Assembly: GCA_016700375.1 (NCBI GenBank)
Contig: CP065016.1
Coordinates: 30,001-62,000 of the forward strand
Direction of reading: 5' to 3'
DNA: 32,000 bases
DNA from: Candidatus Saccharimonadota bacterium
Lineage (GTDB): Bacteria > Patescibacteriota > Saccharimonadia > Saccharimonadales > UBA4665
Shown here: positions 743-30,105 of the stretch, one piece after another
How positions within the stretch are numbered: position 1 is the stretch's first letter
Layout of the letters: each line of letters opens with the position of its first letter
Program-made: the position numbers and the translations under genes
The notes under the pieces: model-generated
The model's database searches: none
What the model saw: only the letters and a program-made list of their open reading frames with translations
What the model was told of the DNA's origin: nothing

Positions 743-1702
743 TGTTAGAAAACCTCGCGTTGTTTAACTTTTCCAGCTTCCTTCATAGGCCGCTCGTACT
801 GGTAAAAGTACCACATAGTCGCTCGAGCGGCGTCGCCTTGTCAATGCCTTTGTGTGGGCGTACACAGTTGTAGTAATTCACAAACCTGGTAAGGGCTTTG
901 GCTCGCTCCTCACGACTGTTAAATACCTCGGCGTTATGCCAGCTCTCCATTAGTGTTCGGATGGCTCGTTCGGCTTTGCCATTCGTCTGCGGACACTTCA
1001 CTTTGGTGAACTTCTGGGTGATGCCAGCCTCGCCACAGGCTTTCATGAAAGCATGTTCACCGTAACGGCCTTTGTACTCGGTGCCATTGTCGGTTAAGAT
1101 TCGTTCAATACCATAGGGGCATTGAGCCAGTACAGTACTGAGGAAATCCGCGCTACTGAACATGCTCTTGTCGGGGTAGATACCAACGTACAGCTCTCTT
1201 GAGTAGTCATCAATAGCCACAAACAGATATTCATGGCCGTCCAGCTTCGTTTCGCCCGTAAGTAGTGGTAGACGTTTAGTATCCATATGCAACATCTCGC
1301 CTGGATAGTCTTTCTCGTAACGTTTGGCAGTCCGGGCTAGTTTATCTTGGATTGATCGCTCAATTTTGCCCAGCCGCTTTAAGCCGTACTCCAGGCATTG
1401 GTAGCGTTTGTTAGTACTGACGTGCAGGCTGTAGTCATCCCGCCGAGCCCGAGTGAGGATCTTTTGTATAGTGGGGTAGGACACCCCATATTTGGCAATG
1501 AGATCTTTCTTACGTAAGTTGAGGACAAAATAATCCTCTGCCAATGCTTTACGTTGAAACGGCATGAGCCGTGTTCGTTTATGTACTACCATAGTGGTAG
1601 CCTCCTCTCGTTGGGTTAGTTAGTTGGTTGTACTCTAACTTTTACCATGGAGGAGGCTACTTTGGTTGTCTAGAAAGTTAAATAACGCTCGGGGATTTTA
1701 CA
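743..1702 (-). mobile_element. IS481-family insertion sequence, copy A (960 bp)
   Basis: Imperfect terminal inverted repeats begin with TGT: TGTTAGAAAACCTCGCGTTGTTTAAC at 743 and, inverted at 1702, TGTAAAATCCCCGAGCGTTATTTAAC. A 7-bp direct repeat GGTTATG flanks it (736-742 and 1703-1709). It is the reverse complement of copy B wherever compared (both ends, leader, and an identical 269-aa product). Confidence 0.9.
783..1592 (-). CDS. IS481-family DDE transposase (HTH + rve integrase core)
   Basis: 269 aa with the motifs HMDTKRL (D), TDNGTEY (D) and PQTNGKAERAIRTL (E), typical of IS481-type rve transposases. A GAGGAGG SD lies 7 nt upstream. Confidence 0.9.
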   Translation of the reverse strand: MVVHKRTRLMPFQRKALAEDYFVLNLRKKDLIAKYGVSYPTIQKILTRARRDDYSLHVSTNKRYQCLEYGLKRLGKIERSIQDKLARTAKRYEKDYPGEMLHMDTKRLPLLTGETKLDGHEYLFVAIDDYSRELYVGIYPDKSMFSSADFLSTVLAQCPYGIERILTDNGTEYKGRYGEHAFMKACGEAGITQKFTKVKCPQTNGKAERAIRTLMESWHNAEVFNSREERAKALTRFVNYYNCVRPHKGIDKATPLERLCGTFTSTSGL

Positions 1703-1788: not shown

Positions 1789-4722
1789 ATGAGTGATTTT
1801 TTTCAGCAGGCTAGAAATATGCAAGTGGGAGGGGGCGCGACAAGCAGCCACTCAAACGTTTTAGCGTCCACTCCCATGCCATCATCTCTAAAAGAGATAG
1901 TATCTGCTTGGGAGGCGATAAATAAAGAACTTTCAAGTAAAGGGTATACGTCTTTCAGCTTTGACTTGAGCGATACCGGGCTTGCTCGGGCTACGACCGG
2001 TATCCGGCACAACGCACCAGACCAAATTTCCACTCCCTTCGCGCAAAGCGTCATAGAATATCGTGTTGCCGCTCAACGTGCTGCAATCTTTAACGCTCCT
2101 TATCGAACACACACGTACAGCAACGATCCCACTTTCGGTCCAGACCTTGCCGGCAAGGAGGTTCGAAACTATGAAGGCGATATGATACACGAAGCCTTTG
2201 CCGAGAATTCCGACGGCTCCCCGATACTTGAGGATCCGAGCTATAAACTGGATCCCGAATTTCTCGCCAAAGGCATTAATAAACGTTTGACTACCTACGC
2301 GCAATCGCAAATCGACCCTGCTGGTTACCATATTGCCAATGGCCAAGAATTTTTTGAGGGTCAGTGGCAGAATATTACTGATGACGCAAGACGCGAGCAG
2401 TCCATAGCGGAGTTCAAGGCAACCCACGGCGAGTGGGATGAAATAAAGGGCAACTACACTAAATTTCTTGAGAATGGCGGTCGGGACATTTCCAGCGTCA
2501 GCGACACCAGCACAAATCCACTCACACTTGACCAATTTGCCTACGGCCCAGGAGAGAAGAATGTGGAGGCGGCCTTCAATACGACGTCGTATGATCCTAC
2601 GAAACGCCTTCAAGAGGCCGTCGGGGCAAAGGGTGAGGTAACGGATCCAACCAACCCAAACTATGATAGTGATCTCGTGCGCCGTTTCTTAATGGCTCGG
2701 ACACAATTAATCGCCGTGACGACACCAGAAGCAAATAGCATGCTCGCTGACAAAAACGGCACAGAGTCTGATGCGATTAAGAGATTGTTAAATGATGCAC
2801 GAGCCAGTACGTTAAACACGGCCTCAACCCTTGATGGCGGCGGGCATTTTTCTGAGCGAATTATTGCAAGTTTCAGGGATAAGCTAACGGCGTTTGCCGA
2901 TGGCAGCACTGAGTCAGCTAGTCGACAACAGCTTTATTCTAGTAGACGAGACGAGGTTTATGGCGGGTTTGCCACAGGTTCTGCTCAATCTTCCGCTCGA
3001 ATCAATGATTATCCACATGGTATATTCAGTAACCAGTCATTGCGACAAGAGGGGCGATGGTCGGGCCAGATGAGCCAACAGAGCCCTGCAGATGTAATCC
3101 GCGCCCAAGCCATTGCCTCCGGCGACGTAGATACGCTTAATGCTCTTCATAAGGCGTACATGGCAGGAGGTTCGATTGAAGTAGAACGCAATGGCTTTTA
3201 CAGCGGGAGTAGCATACCAACTATCTCAACAATTAAGAATGACTGGCTGGAGGTGAATGCTGAATTACGTCAGAAAGGGTTCACTTCATACACGCTTAAC
3301 CCTTCGAGTGAAGCGATTCAAGAAAAGCCGACTGTTGTTTCCACTCCCTTCGCGCAAAGCGTCATAGAATATCGTGTTGCCGCTCAACGTGCTGCAATCT
3401 TTAACGCTCCTTATCGAACACACACGTACAGCAACGATCCCACTTTCGGTCCAGACCTTGCCGGCAAGGAGGTTCGAAACTATGAAGGCGATATGATACA
3501 CGAAGCCTTTGCCGAGAATTCCGACGGCTCCCCGATACTTGAGGATCCGAGCTATAAACTGGATCCCGAATTTCTCGCCAAAGGCATTAATAAACGTTTG
3601 ACTACCTACGCGCAATCGCAAATCGACCCTGCTGGTTACCATATTGCCAATGGCCAAGAATTTTTTGAGGGTCAGTGGCAGAATATTACTGATGACGCAA
3701 GACGCGAGCAGTCCGTAGCGGAGTTCAAGGCAACCCACGGCGAGTGGGATGAAATAAAGGGCAACTACACTAAATTTCTTGAGAATGGCGGTCGGGACAT
3801 TTCCAGCGTCAGCGACACCAGCACAAATCCACTCACACTTGACCAATTTGCCTACGGCCCAGGAGAGAAGAATGTGGAGGCTCGGGCAGCGTTGGTTAAT
3901 CCAGATAAATTGTTTGTCGCAACGCTAGGCGAAAAAGGCGATATTACTGACTACAAAAACCCAAATATGGATGCCGATCTCCTAAAACGGTATCTGACCG
4001 CAAAAAGTGAAATGCAAGCTATCTATACCGGAGGGAAATTGCAGGGCGGACATTTTCAAACGGTAGATATGCTAGAACAGCAGCCTGAGATAATGCAACG
4101 GAACTATGTGGCAGATTCTCTCCGCAGGCAGTACAGTTTAGATTTGGCGAACCGAGGGGGGAGAATCGGTGAGTTTTCTCAAGAAATGCCGTCTGGAATG
4201 TACAATCGTCGACCTTATATGTTCGACGACAGATTTATGAATCCGTATAACACCGCAGGGAGCCAACCTGAAGGAGGGTCAAGGAGCTACGGCTATTCCC
4301 CGAATGAAGCCCGCGAAATTGAGGCATATCGATCAAGGTTGGCGAGTGAACGAATTACGGGAAGTTTTTATAGGCCATATGATGGGTTGGCAGGACAGTC
4401 TCAAGCAGATGAGTATGCTGCGAGAGCACTTCGGTCAAACGATGCCGGTGTTATAGCAAAACTTCATGAAGAATATATGGCGTCTTCAAACAGTGCCGTC
4501 GTAACTGATGCCACAAACCTCAGCAATAATATGCAATCAAATTCAGCCTTGGCCTACACGTATCCAGCTGCATCTGGCGGTTCAACAACACAAGAAAAAA
4601 TGAACACCCAGCCATCGATATCCGCGACTGGCGCGTCGATGGCATCTGCGTCCCCGGCTGGAACGTCAGAAAATGCGCAAGCAGCTAATCCGATTAGCAT
4701 GGTATCCTTTACCAAACAGTAA
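1789..4722 (+). CDS. 977-aa orphan protein of two tandem ~437-aa modules with an S/A/T-rich C-terminal tail; no signal peptide, TM segment or recognised domain
   Basis: Long uninterrupted ORF with a GGAGGA SD about 9 nt upstream. It shows an internal 1311-bp periodicity. I could not recognise any family motif. Confidence 0.8.
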   Translation: MSDFFQQARNMQVGGGATSSHSNVLASTPMPSSLKEIVSAWEAINKELSSKGYTSFSFDLSDTGLARATTGIRHNAPDQISTPFAQSVIEYRVAAQRAAIFNAPYRTHTYSNDPTFGPDLAGKEVRNYEGDMIHEAFAENSDGSPILEDPSYKLDPEFLAKGINKRLTTYAQSQIDPAGYHIANGQEFFEGQWQNITDDARREQSIAEFKATHGEWDEIKGNYTKFLENGGRDISSVSDTSTNPLTLDQFAYGPGEKNVEAAFNTTSYDPTKRLQEAVGAKGEVTDPTNPNYDSDLVRRFLMARTQLIAVTTPEANSMLADKNGTESDAIKRLLNDARASTLNTASTLDGGGHFSERIIASFRDKLTAFADGSTESASRQQLYSSRRDEVYGGFATGSAQSSARINDYPHGIFSNQSLRQEGRWSGQMSQQSPADVIRAQAIASGDVDTLNALHKAYMAGGSIEVERNGFYSGSSIPTISTIKNDWLEVNAELRQKGFTSYTLNPSSEAIQEKPTVVSTPFAQSVIEYRVAAQRAAIFNAPYRTHTYSNDPTFGPDLAGKEVRNYEGDMIHEAFAENSDGSPILEDPSYKLDPEFLAKGINKRLTTYAQSQIDPAGYHIANGQEFFEGQWQNITDDARREQSVAEFKATHGEWDEIKGNYTKFLENGGRDISSVSDTSTNPLTLDQFAYGPGEKNVEARAALVNPDKLFVATLGEKGDITDYKNPNMDADLLKRYLTAKSEMQAIYTGGKLQGGHFQTVDMLEQQPEIMQRNYVADSLRRQYSLDLANRGGRIGEFSQEMPSGMYNRRPYMFDDRFMNPYNTAGSQPEGGSRSYGYSPNEAREIEAYRSRLASERITGSFYRPYDGLAGQSQADEYAARALRSNDAGVIAKLHEEYMASSNSAVVTDATNLSNNMQSNSALAYTYPAASGGSTTQEKMNTQPSISATGASMASASPAGTSENAQAANPISMVSFTKQ
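2027..2570 (+). repeat. 544-bp intragenic direct repeat, copy 1
   Basis: Matches 3338-3881 at an offset of 1311 bp with a single difference (A2404 versus G3715, giving Ile/Val). Confidence 0.95.
3338..3881 (+). repeat. 544-bp intragenic direct repeat, copy 2
   Basis: See copy 1. Identity stops abruptly at both borders while the protein flanks remain only distantly similar. Confidence 0.95.
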
Positions 4723-6132: not shown

Positions 6133-6226
6133 GTCATTAAGAGCGGTCTGATTGTATGCATTTTGCGTCTGATTCTGAGTAGAATATCCTGAACTGGCAA
6201 TAACTACATTCGGATTTAATATAATG

Positions 6227-7186
6227 TGTAAAATCCCCGAGCGTTATTTAACTTTCTAGACAACCAAAGTAGCCTCCTCCATGGTAAAAGTTAGAGTACA
6301 ACCAACTAACTAACCCAACGAGAGGAGGCTACCACTATGGTAGTACATAAACGAACACGGCTCATGCCGTTTCAACGTAAAGCATTGGCAGAGGATTATT
6401 TTGTCCTCAACTTACGTAAGAAAGATCTCATTGCCAAATATGGGGTGTCCTACCCCACTATACAAAAGATCCTCACTCGGGCTCGGCGGGATGACTACAG
6501 CCTGCACGTCAGTACTAACAAACGCTACCAATGCCTGGAGTACGGCTTAAAGCGGCTGGGCAAAATTGAGCGATCAATCCAAGATAAACTAGCCCGGACT
6601 GCCAAACGTTACGAGAAAGACTATCCAGGCGAGATGTTGCATATGGATACTAAACGTCTACCACTACTTACGGGCGAAACGAAGCTGGACGGCCATGAAT
6701 ATCTGTTTGTGGCTATTGATGACTACTCAAGAGAGCTGTACGTTGGTATCTACCCCGACAAGAGCATGTTCAGTAGCGCGGATTTCCTCAGTACTGTACT
6801 GGCTCAATGCCCCTATGGTATTGAACGAATCTTAACCGACAATGGCACCGAGTACAAAGGCCGTTACGGTGAACATGCTTTCATGAAAGCCTGTGGCGAG
6901 GCTGGCATCACCCAGAAGTTCACCAAAGTGAAGTGTCCGCAGACGAATGGCAAAGCCGAACGAGCCATCCGAACACTAATGGAGAGCTGGCATAACGCCG
7001 AGGTATTTAACAGTCGTGAGGAGCGAGCCAAAGCCCTTACCAGGTTTGTGAATTACTACAACTGTGTACGCCCACACAAAGGCATTGACAAGGCGACGCC
7101 GCTCGAGCGACTATGTGGTACTTTTACCAGTACGAGCGGCCTATGAAGGAAGCTGGAAAAGTTAAACAACGCGAGGTTTTCTAACA
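6227..7186 (+). mobile_element. IS481-family insertion sequence, copy B (960 bp)
   Basis: Same termini as copy A, in inverted orientation relative to it. A 7-bp direct repeat TATAATG flanks it (6220-6226 and 7187-7193). Confidence 0.9.
6337..7146 (+). CDS. IS481-family DDE transposase (identical to 783..1592)
   Basis: The 269-aa product is identical to copy A and has the same SD. Confidence 0.9.
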   Translation: MVVHKRTRLMPFQRKALAEDYFVLNLRKKDLIAKYGVSYPTIQKILTRARRDDYSLHVSTNKRYQCLEYGLKRLGKIERSIQDKLARTAKRYEKDYPGEMLHMDTKRLPLLTGETKLDGHEYLFVAIDDYSRELYVGIYPDKSMFSSADFLSTVLAQCPYGIERILTDNGTEYKGRYGEHAFMKACGEAGITQKFTKVKCPQTNGKAERAIRTLMESWHNAEVFNSREERAKALTRFVNYYNCVRPHKGIDKATPLERLCGTFTSTSGL

Positions 7187-7237
7187 TATAATGCTTCCTG
7201 TTCCTCCACCACCCTGTGTGTCATCTACATCAGCCAT
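7187..7237 (-). pseudogene. orphaned 5' end (first 17 codons) of the LysM protein gene
   Basis: On the minus strand AAAGGAGG-ctctg-ATG (ATG at 7237-7235) encodes MADVDDTQGGGGTGSII and ends exactly at the IS boundary. Removing the IS and one TSD copy joins it in frame to 6219..4900 with no stop codon. In the present state the IS end TGT TAG supplies a stop. Confidence 0.8.
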
Positions 7238-11379: not shown

Positions 11380-12426
11380 ATGAGCTACCAGCACGAAGAC
11401 ATTGCTCGCGCCGCCGAACTTTTGCGAACGCGACTCCAAACGCTCGACGACAAGGTCGCAATTATGCGCGCACCGGAGCTCGGCGCGCTGTATGCCCAAA
11501 TCCGGACACTCCCAAATGAAGTGAAATCTTCCTTCGGTCGCGAGCTAAATGAGCTGAAAAGTGAGTTGCAAGCGGCTGTTGACGCAGCAGCCGACTCGGC
11601 CGTAGAATTACCGCCTATAGATGTAACTGCACCCATGGACGTGAATACAGCTAGACCTAGCCTTTTGCCAAACCAGCAGGGTAGCGTCCATCCTCTTATG
11701 CAGGAAATGGAACGCATAGCACATATATTCAACCGCATGGGCTATGTCGTAGAAGAATCTCGTGAACTGGACGACCAGTATCACATGTTCGAGACGCTGA
11801 ACTTTCCCAAAGGCCACCCCGCGCGCGACGATTATGACACCTTCATGACAGTTGAAACAGACAAAGAAGGTGACCCGTTCATCGCGCCTGCTCACACCAG
11901 TACTATGCAAAACCGTGTCCTCAGAAAATATGCCGTCAATCTTGAAAAGGGTGAACCGATTGCAGTACTCGTACCCGACCGTGTGTTCCGCAACGAAGAC
12001 CTCGACGCACGGCACGAGCACACGTTCTACCAGTTTGAGGGCGTTTACGTGAACAAGGGTGTCCACGCCGGTATGCTGATTGCGACGTTACAGACCTTTC
12101 TCGAAGAATATTATGGCAAACAACTTGAAGTTCGAGTGAACCCGTTTTATTTCCCATTCACCGAACCAAGTTTTGAGTTTGCGCTGAGCTGTCCGTTTTG
12201 CGAAAAGGCTGGTTGTCACATTTGCAGTCATTCCGGCTGGATAGAACTTTTGGGTTGCGGCATGATACACCCAAATGTACTGCGTGCGGCCGATGTTGAC
12301 CCTGCTGTGTACACCGGCTTCGCCTGGGGTAGCGGCGTCGAGCGTCTTGTCATGATGAAATACGGCGTGGAAGACATCCGCCACTTCGAAAGCGCCAAAC
12401 TCGATTTCCTGGAGCAATTCAAATGA
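11380..12426 (+). CDS. pheS: phenylalanine--tRNA ligase alpha subunit
   Basis: 348 aa with class II aaRS motifs (HPARD, FRNE, GFAWGSGVERLVM). Confidence 0.95.
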   Translation: MSYQHEDIARAAELLRTRLQTLDDKVAIMRAPELGALYAQIRTLPNEVKSSFGRELNELKSELQAAVDAAADSAVELPPIDVTAPMDVNTARPSLLPNQQGSVHPLMQEMERIAHIFNRMGYVVEESRELDDQYHMFETLNFPKGHPARDDYDTFMTVETDKEGDPFIAPAHTSTMQNRVLRKYAVNLEKGEPIAVLVPDRVFRNEDLDARHEHTFYQFEGVYVNKGVHAGMLIATLQTFLEEYYGKQLEVRVNPFYFPFTEPSFEFALSCPFCEKAGCHICSHSGWIELLGCGMIHPNVLRAADVDPAVYTGFAWGSGVERLVMMKYGVEDIRHFESAKLDFLEQFK

Positions 12427-15038
12427 AAGTAAGTTTAAACACTATTCGCCAATATGTTGACTTTGAACTACCGCCGGTGACAGAGCTGGTTGAGCGGATT
12501 AACCAGCAGCTCGGCGGAGTCGAGGAAGTTATAGACCTCGGTGCAAAATACAAAGGCATTGTAGTTGCCAAGATTGTAACGTGCGAACCGCACCCCGACA
12601 GCGACCATCTCCACATTTGCCAGATTGAAGTGGGCAATAACCCTGAATATGCCAAATTCAAGATTCCAGATTCAAATTTTGTCCAAGTCGTCTGCGGTGC
12701 GCCAAACGTCCACGCCGATATGTTCGTTGCGTGGCTGCCGCCCGGCGCCACCGTGCCGGCGAGCTACGACAAAGACCCGTTCGTGCTGGATGCTCGCACC
12801 ATACGCGGGGTAAAAAGCAATGGCATGCTGGCCAGTCCAGCCGAACTTGCTATTGGCGATAATCACGACGGCATTTTGGAAATCACCGTTGCAGACTTGC
12901 CTCCTGCGTCATCCCCGCGAAGGCGGGGATCCAGTAGCCTAAAAAACACTTCCTGGATTCCCAATCAAGTCGGGAATGACAGCAGTTTAAGACCGGGCAT
13001 TGACTTTGCGGAAGTATTTGGACTCAATGACACAATCATAGACATAGAAAACAAGATGTTTACCCACCGACCAGATTGTTTCGGTCAGTTGGGTGTAGCA
13101 CGTGAAATTGCTGGTATCCACGGCCAGAAGTTTACAAGCCCTGAGTGGTATTTGAGTATCCCAGAATTCGTTGCGGGAGATGGATTGCAACTGACTGTTT
13201 TAAATGAAGCAGAAGAAAAGGTGCCACGTTTCATGGCGGTTGCGGTAAAAAATGTGGAGATTAAGCCAAGCCCGTTTTGGCTCCAGTGCGAATTAGTGCG
13301 ACTTGGCAGCAAGCCCATAAATAATATTGTCGACATTACCAACTACGTCATGCTACACACAGCACAGCCCTTACACGCATATGATTATGACAAGCTCCGT
13401 GGATGCACACTGGGTGCTCGCATGGGCAGGGCGGGTGAAAAGCTTACACTACTCAACGGCAAAAATTACGACGTTACAGAAGATGACATTATTATCGTAG
13501 ACGCCGAAGGCCCAGTCGGTATGGGTGGTGTTATGGGTGGCGGCAATAGCGAAGTTTCGGCTGATACAAAAAATGTTGTGCTCGAATGTGCCACGTTCGA
13601 CATGTACACCATACGCAAAACAAGTATGCGCCACGGACTTTTTACCGATGCCGTCACGCGGTTCAATAAAGGTCAGTCACCACTTCAAAATCCTGCATGT
13701 CTATTTCAGGCACTCAATATGGTTCTGGAACTTGCCGGTGGTAGTCAGGCGGGGGCGGTCGCTGACCTTGTGTCCGGCGATGAACTGGCTGCTCGCATAC
13801 AAGCACATGAGGGCGTATTGCCCCAGAGTATCATGCCACAATTTATTCGTGACCGACTTGGCCTTGGTATAAAAAAATACGATATGGTGCAGCTGCTTGG
13901 AAATGTCGAGTTTCCGCTTTGCGAAGATTGTGGCTGGGACCCCGAGGACGAACAAGACAACAACGAAGAATTACACATCAATGTGCCGTTTTGGCGTACT
14001 GATGTTGAACTTCCGGAAGATATTGTTGAGGAAGTCGGACGGCTCTACGGCTTTGATAAACTGCCGCGGGAGTTGCCGCAGCGAAGCATGAAGCCCGCGC
14101 CGTTAAACGTGCGACTAGAAATGAAGCGAAAAATCCGCCATATTCTCTCTGGGGCCGGTGCAAATGAGGTGCTAACGTATAGTTTTGTACACGAAAAAGT
14201 ACTGAAAGGTGCCGGCCAAGACCCAGCGCAAGCATTTCGTTTAGGGAACGCGCTTAGTCCTGACCTCCAGTACTACCGACTGAGCCTTATTCCTAGTCTG
14301 CTCGACAAAGTACATGTAAATATTAAAGCCGGTCATGATGAATTTGCCCTGTTTGAGTTTGGAAAGGCCCACCGTAAGGGTGACCTTGGCGAAGATGGGC
14401 TTCCTCGCGAGTACGAGCGACTTGCGTTTGTATATGCAGCCAAAAAATATCCGCATGCAGCGTTTTATGCTGCGCGCCAATATGTCGAGATGCTTTCAGA
14501 TAGTTTGGTCTATGTGCCACTGAGTGAATTTGACTCATCTGCGCATGCAATATTTGAGCAGCTTTCAAAACCATTTGAACCAAAACGCGCAGCCGTTGTT
14601 TTTGACGGGGAGCAATTTGTAGGGGTGGTGGGCGAGTTTAGTGCGGCAACGCGGCGAGCTTTCAAGCTCCCAGAGGGTGCAGCCGGTTTCGAGCTATTCC
14701 AGTCGTTCCTTCTCAAGCTCGCTCCAAAACAGTATGTGCCATTGCCTCGTTTTCCGTCTGTAACACAAGACATCTCACTAAGAGTCTCTATCGCAACCCC
14801 GTATGCAGATGTTCTGGCGTCTGCAGAGTCCGCGTTAGACCAGCTTCGCACCGAGGTTCAATTACTCGAACTCACGCCGCTCGGTATATACCAGCCAGAA
14901 GCCGGGCAAACCAAAACGGTAACCTTGCGACTACGAGCCACTAACACACTGCGGACACTCACAGACACGGAGGTTGCGAGCTACATAGACAGCATAGCTG
15001 AAACGGCTGCAAAAGAAGTTGGTGCCGAAAAGGTCTAG
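12423..15038 (+). CDS. pheT: phenylalanine--tRNA ligase beta subunit, carrying an in-frame ~29-aa insertion
   Basis: 871 aa. The ATGA overlaps the pheS stop. It has an N-terminal tRNA-binding OB domain, then B3/4, B5 and an anticodon-binding-like C-terminus. Confidence 0.95.
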   Translation: MKVSLNTIRQYVDFELPPVTELVERINQQLGGVEEVIDLGAKYKGIVVAKIVTCEPHPDSDHLHICQIEVGNNPEYAKFKIPDSNFVQVVCGAPNVHADMFVAWLPPGATVPASYDKDPFVLDARTIRGVKSNGMLASPAELAIGDNHDGILEITVADLPPASSPRRRGSSSLKNTSWIPNQVGNDSSLRPGIDFAEVFGLNDTIIDIENKMFTHRPDCFGQLGVAREIAGIHGQKFTSPEWYLSIPEFVAGDGLQLTVLNEAEEKVPRFMAVAVKNVEIKPSPFWLQCELVRLGSKPINNIVDITNYVMLHTAQPLHAYDYDKLRGCTLGARMGRAGEKLTLLNGKNYDVTEDDIIIVDAEGPVGMGGVMGGGNSEVSADTKNVVLECATFDMYTIRKTSMRHGLFTDAVTRFNKGQSPLQNPACLFQALNMVLELAGGSQAGAVADLVSGDELAARIQAHEGVLPQSIMPQFIRDRLGLGIKKYDMVQLLGNVEFPLCEDCGWDPEDEQDNNEELHINVPFWRTDVELPEDIVEEVGRLYGFDKLPRELPQRSMKPAPLNVRLEMKRKIRHILSGAGANEVLTYSFVHEKVLKGAGQDPAQAFRLGNALSPDLQYYRLSLIPSLLDKVHVNIKAGHDEFALFEFGKAHRKGDLGEDGLPREYERLAFVYAAKKYPHAAFYAARQYVEMLSDSLVYVPLSEFDSSAHAIFEQLSKPFEPKRAAVVFDGEQFVGVVGEFSAATRRAFKLPEGAAGFELFQSFLLKLAPKQYVPLPRFPSVTQDISLRVSIATPYADVLASAESALDQLRTEVQLLELTPLGIYQPEAGQTKTVTLRLRATNTLRTLTDTEVASYIDSIAETAAKEVGAEKV
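12903..12985. repeat. about 80-bp compound palindromic (MITE/RPE-like) element inside the pheT ORF
   Basis: GTCATCCCCGCGAAGGCGGGGATCCAG (12908-12934) and CTGGATTCCCAATCAAGTCGGGAATGAC (12953-12980) are mutual inverted repeats. The left arm is itself a clean hairpin; the right arm has only a short stem. The left arm resembles GTCATTCCCGCGCAGGCGGGAATCC at 29682-29706. It encodes PPASSPRRRGSSSLKNTSWIPNQVGNDSS. Confidence 0.75.
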
Positions 15039-25978: not shown

Positions 25979-27139
25979 CCCACACTCACTTTTTTCCTCC
26001 TCCCCGTACATGAGCCACCGGTATCGGTGGTAGCAGCGGCGTACGTAGTAGCCGTTGCATATACTCCCAGGCTTGCTTGAACCAGCTCAGTCGTTTCTTG
26101 GGATGAATCTTCTGCTGTTGTTTTGGTAGTACTTTGACCGCATAGCGCCACAGTAACCACCAACCGAGGAAGACAAACAGCAGCAAGTTACGGATGACTT
26201 GTGGTTTTCTGACTCGTTGCCACTCCAATCGTTGCAACCACTTCACATCCTTGAAGGCTTCTTCAATTTCGAACCTTTCTGCGTAACGGTTCAGGACTTG
26301 TCTTCTGGTGAGGGCCTCTGTTCCCTCGCTCGGTAGGTTGGTCAACAAAAACCAGGGCTCCGGATCCTTCATGTTCGGATTGTAATCCGAACGAATAAGT
26401 CGGAGCTTATGTGTATGGTACGTGATGGGTAATTCCTCATGACTAATGTCATGGATGGGTTCCTTCCACCAGCTGGGATCCCAGGGAAGCTGAACGAGCT
26501 TGTCGCTCTTGGTACGAGCGATGAAGTGCACATCGTACAGGGCAAACAAAGTGAACAGTTTGTCACTAGCAAACCAGCGATCCATGACAAGTACCAGTTG
26601 CAGATCTGGTGCATTAACTTGAAGGAAATGGAACAGTCCCTCCAGCGCCACTAGAAGTGGCGCAATGAGAGCTGCTTCGCTGAGGTTCACCTGACACCAA
26701 ATGGGTATAGCTCGACCCTTGCGATGCGACACCGCCAAGATGGCGATACAAAACGGGCCGAATTGAGAGTGGTCCAGAGAGCAGTACCACCGACCAGTAT
26801 GCGAAGCTAACGCTTCGCTAACCAACAATCGCTGCAAGCGCACTGGCAGTTCCTCGTCAGTAACTAACCGACGAATGCGGTTTTCTCCAGTCCAGCGATT
26901 CAGCCCAAGCTTTCGACCAGCAGCGTTGAGCGAACAGAACTCCTGAAGGGAAAACTGTTCAACTCCGAGGAAGAAGCGACGAGCCTTAGCTTTTGGGATG
27001 TATGTCGCACGCAGCCGCTTTACAGCAGTTGCCATCTTTTGTAGTGTAGTCATTAGAAAACGACCTTTCTGTTTTAGCTTTTGTAACCAAAACTGTAGGG
27101 TCGTTTTTGTTATGTGTCAAAAAAGTGAGTGTGGGTCAG
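25975..27139 (-). mobile_element. IS4-family insertion sequence (1165 bp)
   Basis: Perfect 21-bp terminal inverted repeats CTGACCCACACTCACTTTTTT. A 9-bp direct repeat GGCCGCCAT flanks it (25966-25974 and 27140-27148). Confidence 0.9.
25986..27053 (-). CDS. IS4-family DDE transposase
   Basis: 355 aa with candidate catalytic residues in SLDHS and VMDRWF, plus YAERFEIEEAFKDVK, which fits the Y-2-R-3-E-6-K signature of IS4-family transposases. Confidence 0.85.
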   Translation of the reverse strand: MTTLQKMATAVKRLRATYIPKAKARRFFLGVEQFSLQEFCSLNAAGRKLGLNRWTGENRIRRLVTDEELPVRLQRLLVSEALASHTGRWYCSLDHSQFGPFCIAILAVSHRKGRAIPIWCQVNLSEAALIAPLLVALEGLFHFLQVNAPDLQLVLVMDRWFASDKLFTLFALYDVHFIARTKSDKLVQLPWDPSWWKEPIHDISHEELPITYHTHKLRLIRSDYNPNMKDPEPWFLLTNLPSEGTEALTRRQVLNRYAERFEIEEAFKDVKWLQRLEWQRVRKPQVIRNLLLFVFLGWWLLWRYAVKVLPKQQQKIHPKKRLSWFKQAWEYMQRLLRTPLLPPIPVAHVRGGGKK

Positions 27140-28985: not shown

Positions 28986-29059
28986 TTACCCCATAAGGTA
29001 AACCACTAGTTCTACTAGTGTGACTCGCAAAGGTTTGACCTTCCCAGTAGTAACCCAGA

Positions 29060-29650
29060 AAATAAGAGCACCCGGAACCGTTTAGGTTTCGGGTGCTCTT
29101 CTTGCGATTGGTTGCCCCGCTGAAAGGAAACCATCTATGTCTACATCGTTAGACTACCATAGCTTATCTCATTCAAAATGGGATTTGAAGTACCATATTG
29201 TCTTCATCCCGAAAGGGAGAAGGAAAGCTCTCTACGGTGAGATACGCCCACGGTTGGGTAGAATATTTCACGAGCTGGCTAACCAAAAAGAATGCAAGAT
29301 TCTGGAAGGCCATCTCATGTCCGATCATGTTCACATGCTCATGGAGATACCACCAAAGTACAAAATCTCTGAAGTGATTGGCTTCATGAAGGGCAAAAGC
29401 GCTATTGCCATTGCCAGAGAGTTCGGCGGTAAGACCAGAAATTTCACGGGTGAACATTTCTGGGCCCGGGGCTATGCTGTTTCAAGCGTTGGATTTGAAG
29501 AGCAGGCCATCAGAAAGTACATCAGAGAGCAGGAGATCGATGACACAGCATCATCGGCTCAAGGAGCCTTCTAACTAATCAAACTAATACTGCGGGGCAA
29601 CGATCGCCTTTTAGGCGACCCCACTCAGCAAGCCACCGGCATGCCGGTGG
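29060..29650 (+). mobile_element. IS200-type element (tnpA only); boundaries approximate
   Basis: A strong 16-bp hairpin (29064-29100) lies upstream of tnpA, as in IS200 left ends. The inverted 10-mers GTTGCCCCGC (29111-29120) and GCGGGGCAAC (29592-29601) bracket the ORF. An 18-bp perfect palindrome CCACCGGCATGCCGGTGG (29632-29649) lies downstream. No TSD is expected for this family. Confidence 0.6.
29137..29574 (+). CDS. tnpA: IS200/IS605-family Y1 (HUH) transposase TnpA
   Basis: 145 aa with the HUH motif SDHVHMLMEIPPKY and a C-terminal catalytic Tyr region IRKYIREQE. The size is typical. Confidence 0.9.
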   Translation: MSTSLDYHSLSHSKWDLKYHIVFIPKGRRKALYGEIRPRLGRIFHELANQKECKILEGHLMSDHVHMLMEIPPKYKISEVIGFMKGKSAIAIAREFGGKTRNFTGEHFWARGYAVSSVGFEEQAIRKYIREQEIDDTASSAQGAF

Positions 29651-29681
29651 TGTCTGACTAACTATCATTCCTGCCCCTCAC

Positions 29682-29706
29682 TGTCATTCCCGCGCAGGCG
29701 GGAATC
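29682..29706. repeat. GTCATYCC-type hairpin repeat (ATTCCC-N8-GGGAAT palindrome)
   Basis: GTCATTCCCGCGCAGGCGGGAATCC, closely similar to the left arm of the pheT element. Confidence 0.7.
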
Positions 29707-30105
29707 CATGCCTTTCTTTTAGTCATGCTGAATAAATTTCAGCATCCATACACCTCCGCTGATGTTTGTGCATTCGCTACACTCCAAAGTTTCACCAAAC
29801 CTTATCTCGCATATGGCAGTTCTCGGACAGCCAAACCGACCAACTTTGTTCAGTCAAAGTTGGATAAACCTGCCGGGGAGAGTGCAAACGACCGGCTTAC
29901 TTGAAATTTCTTTTGACCTGTTTGGCTCCTGCGGAACTCGCTCATTACATTCACTCAGACATCCTCGTCGCGCCAGCAATTTTTAGACAGTCTCAAATCA
30001 GTCGTTATGCATCCCCGGTTTTCCAATTACAACCTCTTACAGCGTCGAAGAAAGCACTCACTGCAGACCAACCTCTGCCCTAGTTGTATCTCTTTGCGAT
30101 AATAT

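Follow-up and report, generated by a model that had tools for sequence, protein, structure and literature searches.

Genomes of the Candidate Phyla Radiation (CPR) are tiny and gene-dense and offer few neutral sites for repeat elements. How, in such a genome, a palindromic element has come to lie in frame within the essential tRNA synthetase gene pheT, and how it is tolerated there, is the question raised by a 32,000-nt stretch of Candidatus Saccharimonadota DNA (contig CP065016.1, positions 30,001 to 62,000; hereafter the window, numbered from its first nucleotide). Our analyses make it likely that the insert is a non-autonomous, gene-less copy of a CGTC-tagged repetitive extragenic palindromic (REP) element, arranged as a head-to-head (HH) dimer and tolerated in the linker between the OB-fold and B3_4 domains of PheT. 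Comparison loci and PheT homologues are designated by L and P numbers, respectively.

Anatomy of the pheT Insert

The pheT gene (12423 to 15038, plus strand) encodes an 871-residue protein whose best matches are PheT proteins named from Candidatus Saccharimonadales or Saccharibacteria, and its start is overlapped by pheS (11380 to 12426) through an ATGA (12423 to 12426). The pheT reading frame is intact, and all five PheT domains were detected. The whole element spans 12907 to 12981 on the plus strand. Its 75 nt amount to 25 codons, which lie in frame in pheT and encode SSPRRRGSSSLKNTSWIPNQVGND (residues about 162 to 186); on the sense strand, only the frame that is used is free of stop codons.

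The element consists of two hairpins tagged with CGTC or TGTC, and reads in order CGTCAT, a stem–GAAG–stem hairpin, ATCCAG, an 18-nt spacer, CTGGAT, an imperfect hairpin and ATGACA. The left arm (12907 to 12934, plus strand) is composed of the CGTCAT tag (12907 to 12912), an 8-bp stem ATCCCCGC/GCGGGGAT in which 12911 to 12918 pair perfectly with 12923 to 12930, the loop GAAG and the tail CCAG. The spacer (12935 to 12952, plus strand; TAGCCTAAAAAACACTTC) is A-rich, and its sequence varies among the insert-carrying PheT lineages. The right arm (12953 to 12981, read on the minus strand as TGTCATTCCCGACTTGATTGGGAATCCAG) is a decayed hairpin with one mismatch, a loop of 3 to 5 nt and a core of the type CCCAATCAAGTCGGG; its TGTCAT tag, also on the minus strand, ends at 12981. 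Compared with shuffled sequences, the element folds strongly as RNA (z = −3.5) and as DNA (z = −4.6 for the plus strand and −5.4 for the minus strand), and none of 200 shuffles equaled it.

A preliminary description of this DNA, made from its letters alone, had recognized the palindrome within pheT. The two arms that it quoted, GTCATCCCCGCGAAGGCGGGGATCCAG (12908 to 12934) and CTGGATTCCCAATCAAGTCGGGAATGAC (12953 to 12980), are exact, its translation PPASSPRRRGSSSLKNTSWIPNQVGNDSS is correct and keeps the frame, and its observations of a clean left-arm hairpin and of a likeness between this arm and an intergenic repeat at 29683 to 29706 were borne out. It had further described the arms as inverted copies of each other. 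This is true of the outer GTCAT/ATGAC and the inner GGATCCAG/CTGGATTCC, which are complementary, but not of the hairpin cores, which differ. By these features, the pheT element is a heterodimer in published REP terms.

The Insert Occupies a Predicted Disordered Loop and Is Probably Not a Functional Peptide

Pfam places the tRNA_bind domain (OB-fold) at residues 46 to 154 and B3_4 at residues 267 to 439, with the insert between them, in agreement with its earlier assignment to the linker after the tRNA-binding domain. When the protein was aligned with Escherichia coli PheT (3PCO_B), residues up to 160 matched E. coli residues up to 142 and residues from 192 matched those from 144. About 31 residues therefore stand where the E. 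coli protein has one, in line with the comparison made in the preliminary description. In an AlphaFold2 model of PheT (51 sequences; mean predicted local distance difference test [pLDDT] score of 85.8), the pLDDT fell below 50 only at residues 164 to 186, within the insert, and at residues 550 to 557; the flanks of the insert scored ∼90, and no secondary structure was predicted for the insert itself. From this model we infer that the insert forms a disordered surface loop, the outcome that had been anticipated.

Substitutions were counted between the window and L001, which carries a P0002-type pheT allele. Inside the element, 2 of 2 substitutions change the amino acid; in the 420 nt upstream of it, 13 of 13 are synonymous (Fisher test, p about 0.01, on small numbers). 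In each of the two lineages, one change weakens a stem. This pattern of substitution is best read as that of a tolerated and slowly decaying passenger, not of a functional peptide. A hand count of G·T wobbles (three) and A·C mismatches (two) in decayed stems, made as a strand test, was uninformative.

The Insert Is a CGTC-Tagged REP Element

Rickettsia palindromic elements (RPE) are reportedly found in frame in essential genes, where they are tolerated as surface peptides. The classic in-frame family, RPE-1, is longer than the pheT insert, at about 100 to 150 bp. The preliminary description had presented the insert as analogous to these elements, and an in-frame palindrome in an essential gene is indeed what we find. 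Its kind is already known, with CGTC-1 REPs equated with both Neisseria dRS3 and RPE-6 of R. conorii, and CGTC-4 with RPE-4 (PMC3733652); the RPE likeness is thus probably a family relationship, beyond analogy. In that study, Di Nocera, De Gregorio and Rocco (2013) sorted REPs into GTAG- and CGTC-tagged superfamilies. The CGTC elements were mostly HH dimers, including heterodimers, with spacers of 20 to 100 nt; they occurred in five phyla, mostly in Alphaproteobacteria, with neither CPR/Saccharibacteria nor pheT listed, and no transposase was linked to them. In-frame copies were reported in TruB, GlyRS-beta, IleRS, UvrA/B/C, DnaE and DnaE2, and Additional file 3 of the study gives the in-frame peptides SFPRKRES, VIPAKAGI and ...LDSRFRGND.

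The pheT left arm has the CGTC tag, the 8-bp stem starting with AT, the 4-nt loop and the CCA tail of CGTC-1 elements, and the two tags of the insert face outward from an 18-nt spacer, as in HH dimers. The peptides agree as well: L007 encodes SFPRRRES and the window SSPRRRGS, to be compared with SFPRKRES and DSRFRGND of CGTC-1/RPE-6 (a comparison of peptides, not of RPE DNA). R. conorii CGTC-1 dimers encode SFPRKRES...LDSRFRGND from the same arms, read in the same or a neighboring frame; RPEs, like the pheT insert, are in-frame palindromes within functional open reading frames (ORFs). The pheT case differs from RPEs in its host, a free-standing CPR lineage rather than Rickettsia, and in its far lower copy number. 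With CGTC-1 REPs in general it shares the tag, stem, loop, tail and HH arrangement as well as a presence in frame within tRNA synthetases, TruB and genes of DNA repair and replication; unlike them, it belongs to a repeat-poor genome, has a TCAAG-type right-arm core and sits in a single linker that has been hit by different subfamilies.

A second literature connects the left arm to a transformation sequence of Neisseria. The Neisseria Transformation Sequence (NTS), CGTCATTCCCGCGMAVGCGGGAATCYRG, includes the dRS3 core, and a degenerate Ssn-related motif (SRM) has been defined alongside it (PMC11893778; Nat Commun 2025). In that work, the small GIY-YIG protein SsnA was found by experiment to bind and to cleave single-stranded NTS DNA, an activity demonstrated for Neisseria and a few other homologues; SsnA homologues are widespread and often motif-flanked, and the NTS–ssnA–NTS arrangement resembles an insertion sequence. 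The same study reports that NTS modulates transformation in Neisseria, lies seldom within genes (2% in N. meningitidis) and that genes next to dRS3 show raised diversity. The left arm of the pheT insert equals the NTS consensus save for one compensatory stem pair (T>C/A>G). The published SRM pattern matches the window at 12907 to 12934 and at 29682 to 29709; the strict NTS/dRS3 pattern (ATTCCC-N8-GGGAAT) matches in the window only the copy at 29686, and not the pheT arm. Judged by its sequence, then, the element is a member of the CGTC-tagged REP family that includes dRS3, NTS and SRM, and is of the CGTC-1 type equated in the literature with RPE-6.

A literature search for in-frame palindromic elements in CPR returned nothing, and the two studies above (PMC3733652 and PMC11893778) cover neither CPR nor pheT. 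The in-frame occurrence of CGTC REPs is known; what is new is the Saccharibacteria host lineage and a pheT site that has been hit recurrently.

The Same Linker Has Been Occupied at Least Twice in Saccharibacteria

We compared the best 120 PheT homologues, which are all Saccharibacteria-type proteins. The linker has its base length in most of them, and such elements stand at the linker in 8 of ∼120. The block is absent from P0001, which at 92% identity is the closest of the homologues compared, and from P0003 and P0008; P0002 (78% identical) carries the same block. Absence from close relatives answers the orthologue comparison that had been proposed, and together with the predicted disorder of the insert and the recurrence of its design in many phyla it upholds the view that a palindrome of a mobile-type family entered an essential ORF and is tolerated there.

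Related blocks occupy the same linker in P0013, P0019 and P0034, and blocks in P0018, P0054 and P0109 encode RHPELxSGS...MLKQVQHD or a hybrid of both types. In the DNA that we fetched for insert-carrying PheTs, each block is a GTCAT...ATGAC doublet, and the doublets fall into two classes. Class A inserts have CCCGCG-type left stems and encode SxPRRRGS...WIPxQxGND; their length is 1 mod 3, and the G of the tag falls at the third codon position. Class B inserts have CCTGAA or GCTGAA stems and encode RHPELxSGS...MLKQVQHD; their length is 2 mod 3, and the G of the tag falls at the second codon position. Between the classes, the start points of the inserts shift by a few nucleotides. In L129, a class B left arm is joined to a right arm that is class A-like, and L131 has lost the right arm. 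In a neighbor-joining tree of PheT built with the linker excluded, carriers are scattered and adjoin insert-free sisters. Taken together, the scattered carriers, the two classes and the hybrid require several independent gains, replacements or losses. Two reading phases, different stems and one hybrid show that the linker has been occupied independently at least twice in Saccharibacteria.

Several other features were seen at or near this linker. In the P0013 insert, a second perfect palindrome, TTCGCTGTACAGCGAA, is nested at the loop position of the left arm (L005, 10480 to 10520), and a low-complexity, Gly-, Asp- and Glu-rich tail comes after the block. L007, whose pheT also has an in-frame doublet, carries a CGTC-tagged hairpin, CGTCATTCCCGGCCCGACCGGGAATCCC, 29 nt past the pheT stop codon (3105 to 3128). 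Long linkers with no recognizable hairpin peptide are found at the same PheT site in P0095, P0022, P0006, P0041, P0055 and P0058; that of P0095 contains KRHFRERFSED twice in tandem, P0041 and P0058 have SMSEDYE(V/A)RKP, and P0055 has SMNEDYEIKKP. Decay of an element, or repeats of another kind, could account for these linkers.

A Mosaic pheT with a Junction at the Edge of the Element

The window matches the P0002-type allele of L001 in a tract (12483 to 12984, plus strand) with 15 differences, an identity of 97% where the background is about 91%. From 12985 on, identity is ∼50 to 80%, with 12 to 33 differences per 60 nt. At the protein level, residues 41 to 160 of the window PheT are 100% identical to P0002; downstream of the insert, the protein is ∼100% P0001-like and 26 to 85% identical to P0002. 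These comparisons show that the window pheT is a mosaic, with the recombination breakpoint where the element ends on its 3′ side. Because a P0002-like 5′ tract is followed by P0001-like sequence, we infer allelic recombination, and the insert may have been gained or exchanged in the window genome by this route and not by transposition.

The mosaic appears from the alignments to involve the entire 5′ half of pheT, beyond the region of the insert. Genomes that are 90 to 96% identical elsewhere differ strongly in this half, and PheT contains short segments, at residues about 241 to 280 and 441 to 520 (about 13140 to 13260 and 13740 to 13980), whose identity between such genomes is 18 to 52%. The gap between pheS and pheT has no cargo in the window; in L001, L004 and L005 it contains between four and eight genes. 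It is a variable island (L001, 2290 to 4515; L004, 2359 to 3991; L005, 6851 to 10001; L130, 1 to 2072), and its genes include NYN, NUDIX, DUF5674, 23S_rRNA_IVP, HIT, GDSL lipase and GIY-YIG.

GIY-YIG Units Share Their Ends with the pheT Insert

In L130, also from Saccharibacteria, a gene for a 103-residue single-domain GIY-YIG protein lies a few hundred bases upstream of pheT. In L053, L095 and L086, inverted GTCAT hairpins stand on both sides of the genes for homologues of this protein (40 to 52% identical), and in L093 a hairpin doublet lies 37 nt from a GIY-YIG gene. The GIY-YIG unit of L053 has CCCGCGAAAGCGGG as its left end and CCCAATCGAGTTGGG as its right end. This asymmetric pair recurs in the arms of the pheT insert, whose right-arm core is of the type found at the right end of the L053 unit. 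Since both L053 ends match the two insert arms, the insert looks like a gene-less miniature of a hairpin–GIY-YIG–hairpin unit. The GIY-YIG family is very large, with members named from CPR and cyanobacteria. Between the paired doublets of L108 and L023 there is no ssn gene, only ordinary genes.

The parallel with the NTS/SRM–SsnA system extends to the SRM fit of the left arm and to GIY-YIG genes bracketed by inverted copies in L053, L086, L095 and L130; it differs in that the window has no ssn gene, and the published account (PMC11893778) deals with neither in-frame copies nor CPR. Tandem arrays of hairpins were seen in L095 (1948 to 2178, with a period of about 54 nt), L033 (1314 to 1819, three doublets about 210 nt apart) and L053 (1578 to 1800). 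Those in L095 and L053 adjoin GIY-YIG genes, and the arrays resemble the NIME-like clustering described for Neisseria.

Doublets Are Widespread Among Bacteria and Rare in the Host Lineage

To describe the distribution of the design, we scanned a collection of species-representative genomes with the pattern GTCATYCYCGCG-N45-75-GRGAATGAC. The scan returned at least 120 loci with conserved arms, variable spacers and the same HH layout, from Proteobacteria, Planctomycetota, Bacteroidota, Cyanobacteria, Nitrospirota, Acidobacteriota, Chloroflexota, Armatimonadota and CPR, including isolates of Sphingomonas, Devosia, Massilia, Dyella and Pedobacter. Among the matches listed, most copies are intergenic, and at least six (about 5%) lie in frame in housekeeping genes, namely those for LeuRS (L027), ValRS (L031), TruB (L041), Tgt (L024, Parcubacteria), a Mur ligase (L017) and UvrA (L036). 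A viral origin was considered on account of a doublet in an IMG/VR contig (L008) and set aside; the doublet sits in an open frame with no Pfam match, at 60% GC, and is probably uninformative.

Within the window, there are four tagged hairpins in which GTCAT precedes a stem of at least 7 bp, as compared with 0.41 expected from shuffles (none of 200 shuffles reached four). Two of these are the pheT pair, and two stand in tandem at 29683 and 29722. The first of the tandem pair (29682 to 29709, plus strand; TGTCATTCCCGCGCAGGCGGGAATCCAT) is an intergenic single CGTC-1/SRM hairpin with a TGTCAT tag at 29682 and a perfect dRS3 core, ATTCCC-N8-GGGAAT. The second (29721 to 29748, plus strand; AGTCATGCTGAATAAATTTCAGCATCCA) is likewise GTCAT-tagged and has a different stem, of the type found in the L130 pheT inserts (MLKQVQHD). 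The element is nevertheless rare, and these genomes are repeat-poor: outside pheT, only ∼3 to 4 tagged hairpins occur in ∼113 kb of Saccharibacteria DNA, a sample made up of loci chosen for an insert-carrying pheT. The claim of mobility is founded on family membership and patchy presence rather than on copy number.

Origin of the Insert and Rival Explanations

The explanation that we favor would run as follows. A hairpin unit carrying a small GIY-YIG (Ssn-type) single-stranded DNA nuclease gene would be the source and former mover of the element. The insert, a gene-less copy, persists in this reading because its 75 nt, tags included, preserve the frame, the frame that is used has no stop codon and the PheT linker tolerates a disordered loop rich in Ser, Arg and Gly. 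Homologous recombination between pheT alleles would have introduced or exchanged the insert in the window genome, the repeat being the crossover itself or a marker of it.

Several points weigh against this explanation. No transposition event was observed, and none of the seven pheT copies has a target-site duplication, so that the element, although it has inverted ends (GTCAT...ATGAC), does not conform to a miniature inverted-repeat transposable element. There is no GIY-YIG gene within the window. In L130, the hairpins flanking the GIY-YIG gene have diverged and show no significant folding, and the assignment of this gene to the Ssn subfamily (cd10448) is putative, being based on architecture. 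The mobilizing enzyme is itself disputed, since Bertels and Rainey assign the Neisseria 21-mer copies to a Group-2 REP-associated tyrosine transposase (RAYT). The small number of tagged hairpins outside pheT in the 113-kb sample counts in the same direction. The empty site of the closest relative, P0001, was judged from protein and not DNA, with DNA of an empty site coming from L004 (P0003). The breakpoint is drawn from one DNA comparison together with the protein comparisons, and a mosaic pattern of this kind would fix neither the direction of recombination nor a causal role for the repeat.

The strongest competitor holds that there was no transposition in this lineage at all, the insert being an old feature of one pheT allele that was spread by homologous recombination, with the repeat carried along or serving as a patch of shared homology. 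The mosaic with its breakpoint at 12985, the hypervariable 5′ half of pheT in genomes otherwise 90 to 96% identical, the low genomic copy number of the element and the raised diversity of dRS3-adjacent genes (PMC11893778) all speak for it, and we regard it as a serious possibility, if somewhat short of an even chance. What it leaves unexplained is the origin of the insert, because two phases, different stem families and a hybrid need several insertions or replacements; for the most recent step, it is compatible with the explanation that we favor. Far less probable is copying of the element as a REP doublet forming a hairpin (REPIN) by a RAYT, for which the Y1 transposase encoded at 29137 to 29574 is the candidate. 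The doublet architecture, an inverted REP pair that can fold into one long hairpin, is exactly REPIN-like, the 21-mer ATTCCCGCGCAGGCGGGAATC, which holds the dRS3 core, was identified as the Neisseria REPIN master sequence and attributed to a Group-2 RAYT (Bertels and Rainey, bioRxiv), and a distance of 108 nt separates the Y1_Tnp gene from the hairpin at 29683 downstream of it. However, this TnpA is a canonical IS200/IS605 protein (NF033573, 140 bits; the RAYT model scored 35.7 bits against a cutoff of 80). Alignment with two metagenome relatives places the end of its insertion sequence (28990 to 29660, plus strand) at ∼29660, and both hairpins (29683 and 29722) begin at least 23 nt beyond this right end, so the insertion sequence is not part of the hairpin system. 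None of 80 loci with a TnpA 66 to 88% identical to it has a downstream CGTC-1 hairpin, and among the matches listed a Y1 homologue lies within 8 kb of 1 of 120 doublet loci. Adjacency of TnpA and hairpins is accordingly not systematic, and no transposase was linked to CGTC REPs in the earlier survey (PMC3733652). On these grounds, the boundary, the NCBIfam assignment and the hairpin-free relatives led us to reject this TnpA as the mobilizer, and a RAYT-driven origin is very improbable.

It is almost as improbable that the element has been co-opted, either through an mRNA or DNA structure at which translation would pause between domains or as a nuclease site for recombination or uptake, with its hairpins under selection. 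The strong fold on both strands, compensatory stem pairs between lineages (CCCCGC/GCGGGG versus CCTCGC/GCGAGG) and the effect of NTS on Neisseria transformation (PMC11893778) would fit such a role. The compensatory differences are explained equally by different master copies, however, and the stem-weakening change in each lineage of the closely related pair, the loss of the right arm in L131 and the absence of the insert from most Saccharibacteria PheTs argue against selection on the hairpins; in addition, Rfam gave no match at gathering scores for the element or anywhere in the window. Least credible of all is an assembly artefact, a chimeric join at the repeat, which the coincidence of breakpoint and repeat and the probable origin of the source as a metagenome-assembled genome might suggest. 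Several independent sequencing runs gave contigs (L001 to L003; P0002 on seven contigs) with the same insert in an intact pheT, and related inserts occur in at least seven further assemblies. Moreover, the element-free P0001-type allele offers an assembler no shared k-mers, and the sequence directly past the element is unique to the window.

We also considered, more speculatively, whether the OB-fold/B3-4 linker of pheT and the pheS–pheT gap form a recurrent landing or crossover site for Ssn-type hairpin elements in Saccharibacteria, so that the intragenic repeat would serve as a junction for recombination, a GIY-YIG nuclease possibly nicking single-stranded DNA in the process. We think this unlikely on balance, although not far-fetched. 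Were it true, segments of a synthetase gene would be swapped between strains, giving the mosaic, hypervariable 5′ half of pheT. The findings widen to CPR the host range of in-frame palindromic repeats, which are best known from Rickettsia and have been catalogued in some Proteobacteria. A single family appears to underlie the Rickettsia-like insert, the dRS3/NTS sequences of Neisseria and the small Ssn-type GIY-YIG units, and the GIY-YIG link bears on what moves CGTC-type REPs, which were reported with no transposase. Where alleles of an essential gene are shuffled, intragenic copies may mark the exchange or favor it. Such inserts also lengthen proteins, seed spurious "conserved" peptides and can mislead alignment and annotation of CPR sequences.

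Other Features of the Window

Given the small genome, insertion sequences are numerous in the window. The IS200/IS605 element described above is complete and has one hairpin upstream of tnpA and another, CCACCGGCATGCCGGTGG, near its right end. A perfect 971-nt inverted repeat lies at 738 to 1708 and 6221 to 7191, each arm encoding an identical 269-residue rve-type integrase (783 to 1592, minus strand; 6337 to 7146, plus strand). The arms bracket 4.5 kb that contain a 977-residue ORF with no Pfam match (1789 to 4722) and a LysM protein, an arrangement that looks like a composite transposon. Within the 977-residue ORF there is a perfect 300-nt direct repeat (2027 to 2326 and 3338 to 3637). A further ORF of 355 residues (25986 to 27053, minus strand) gave a weak match to DDE_Tnp_1; neither the rve nor the DDE transposases of the window have GTCAT...ATGAC ends. 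Between 27324 and 28286 lie two adjacent, tandem LacAB_rpiB (ribose-5-phosphate isomerase B) paralogues, followed by ribulose-phosphate 3-epimerase.

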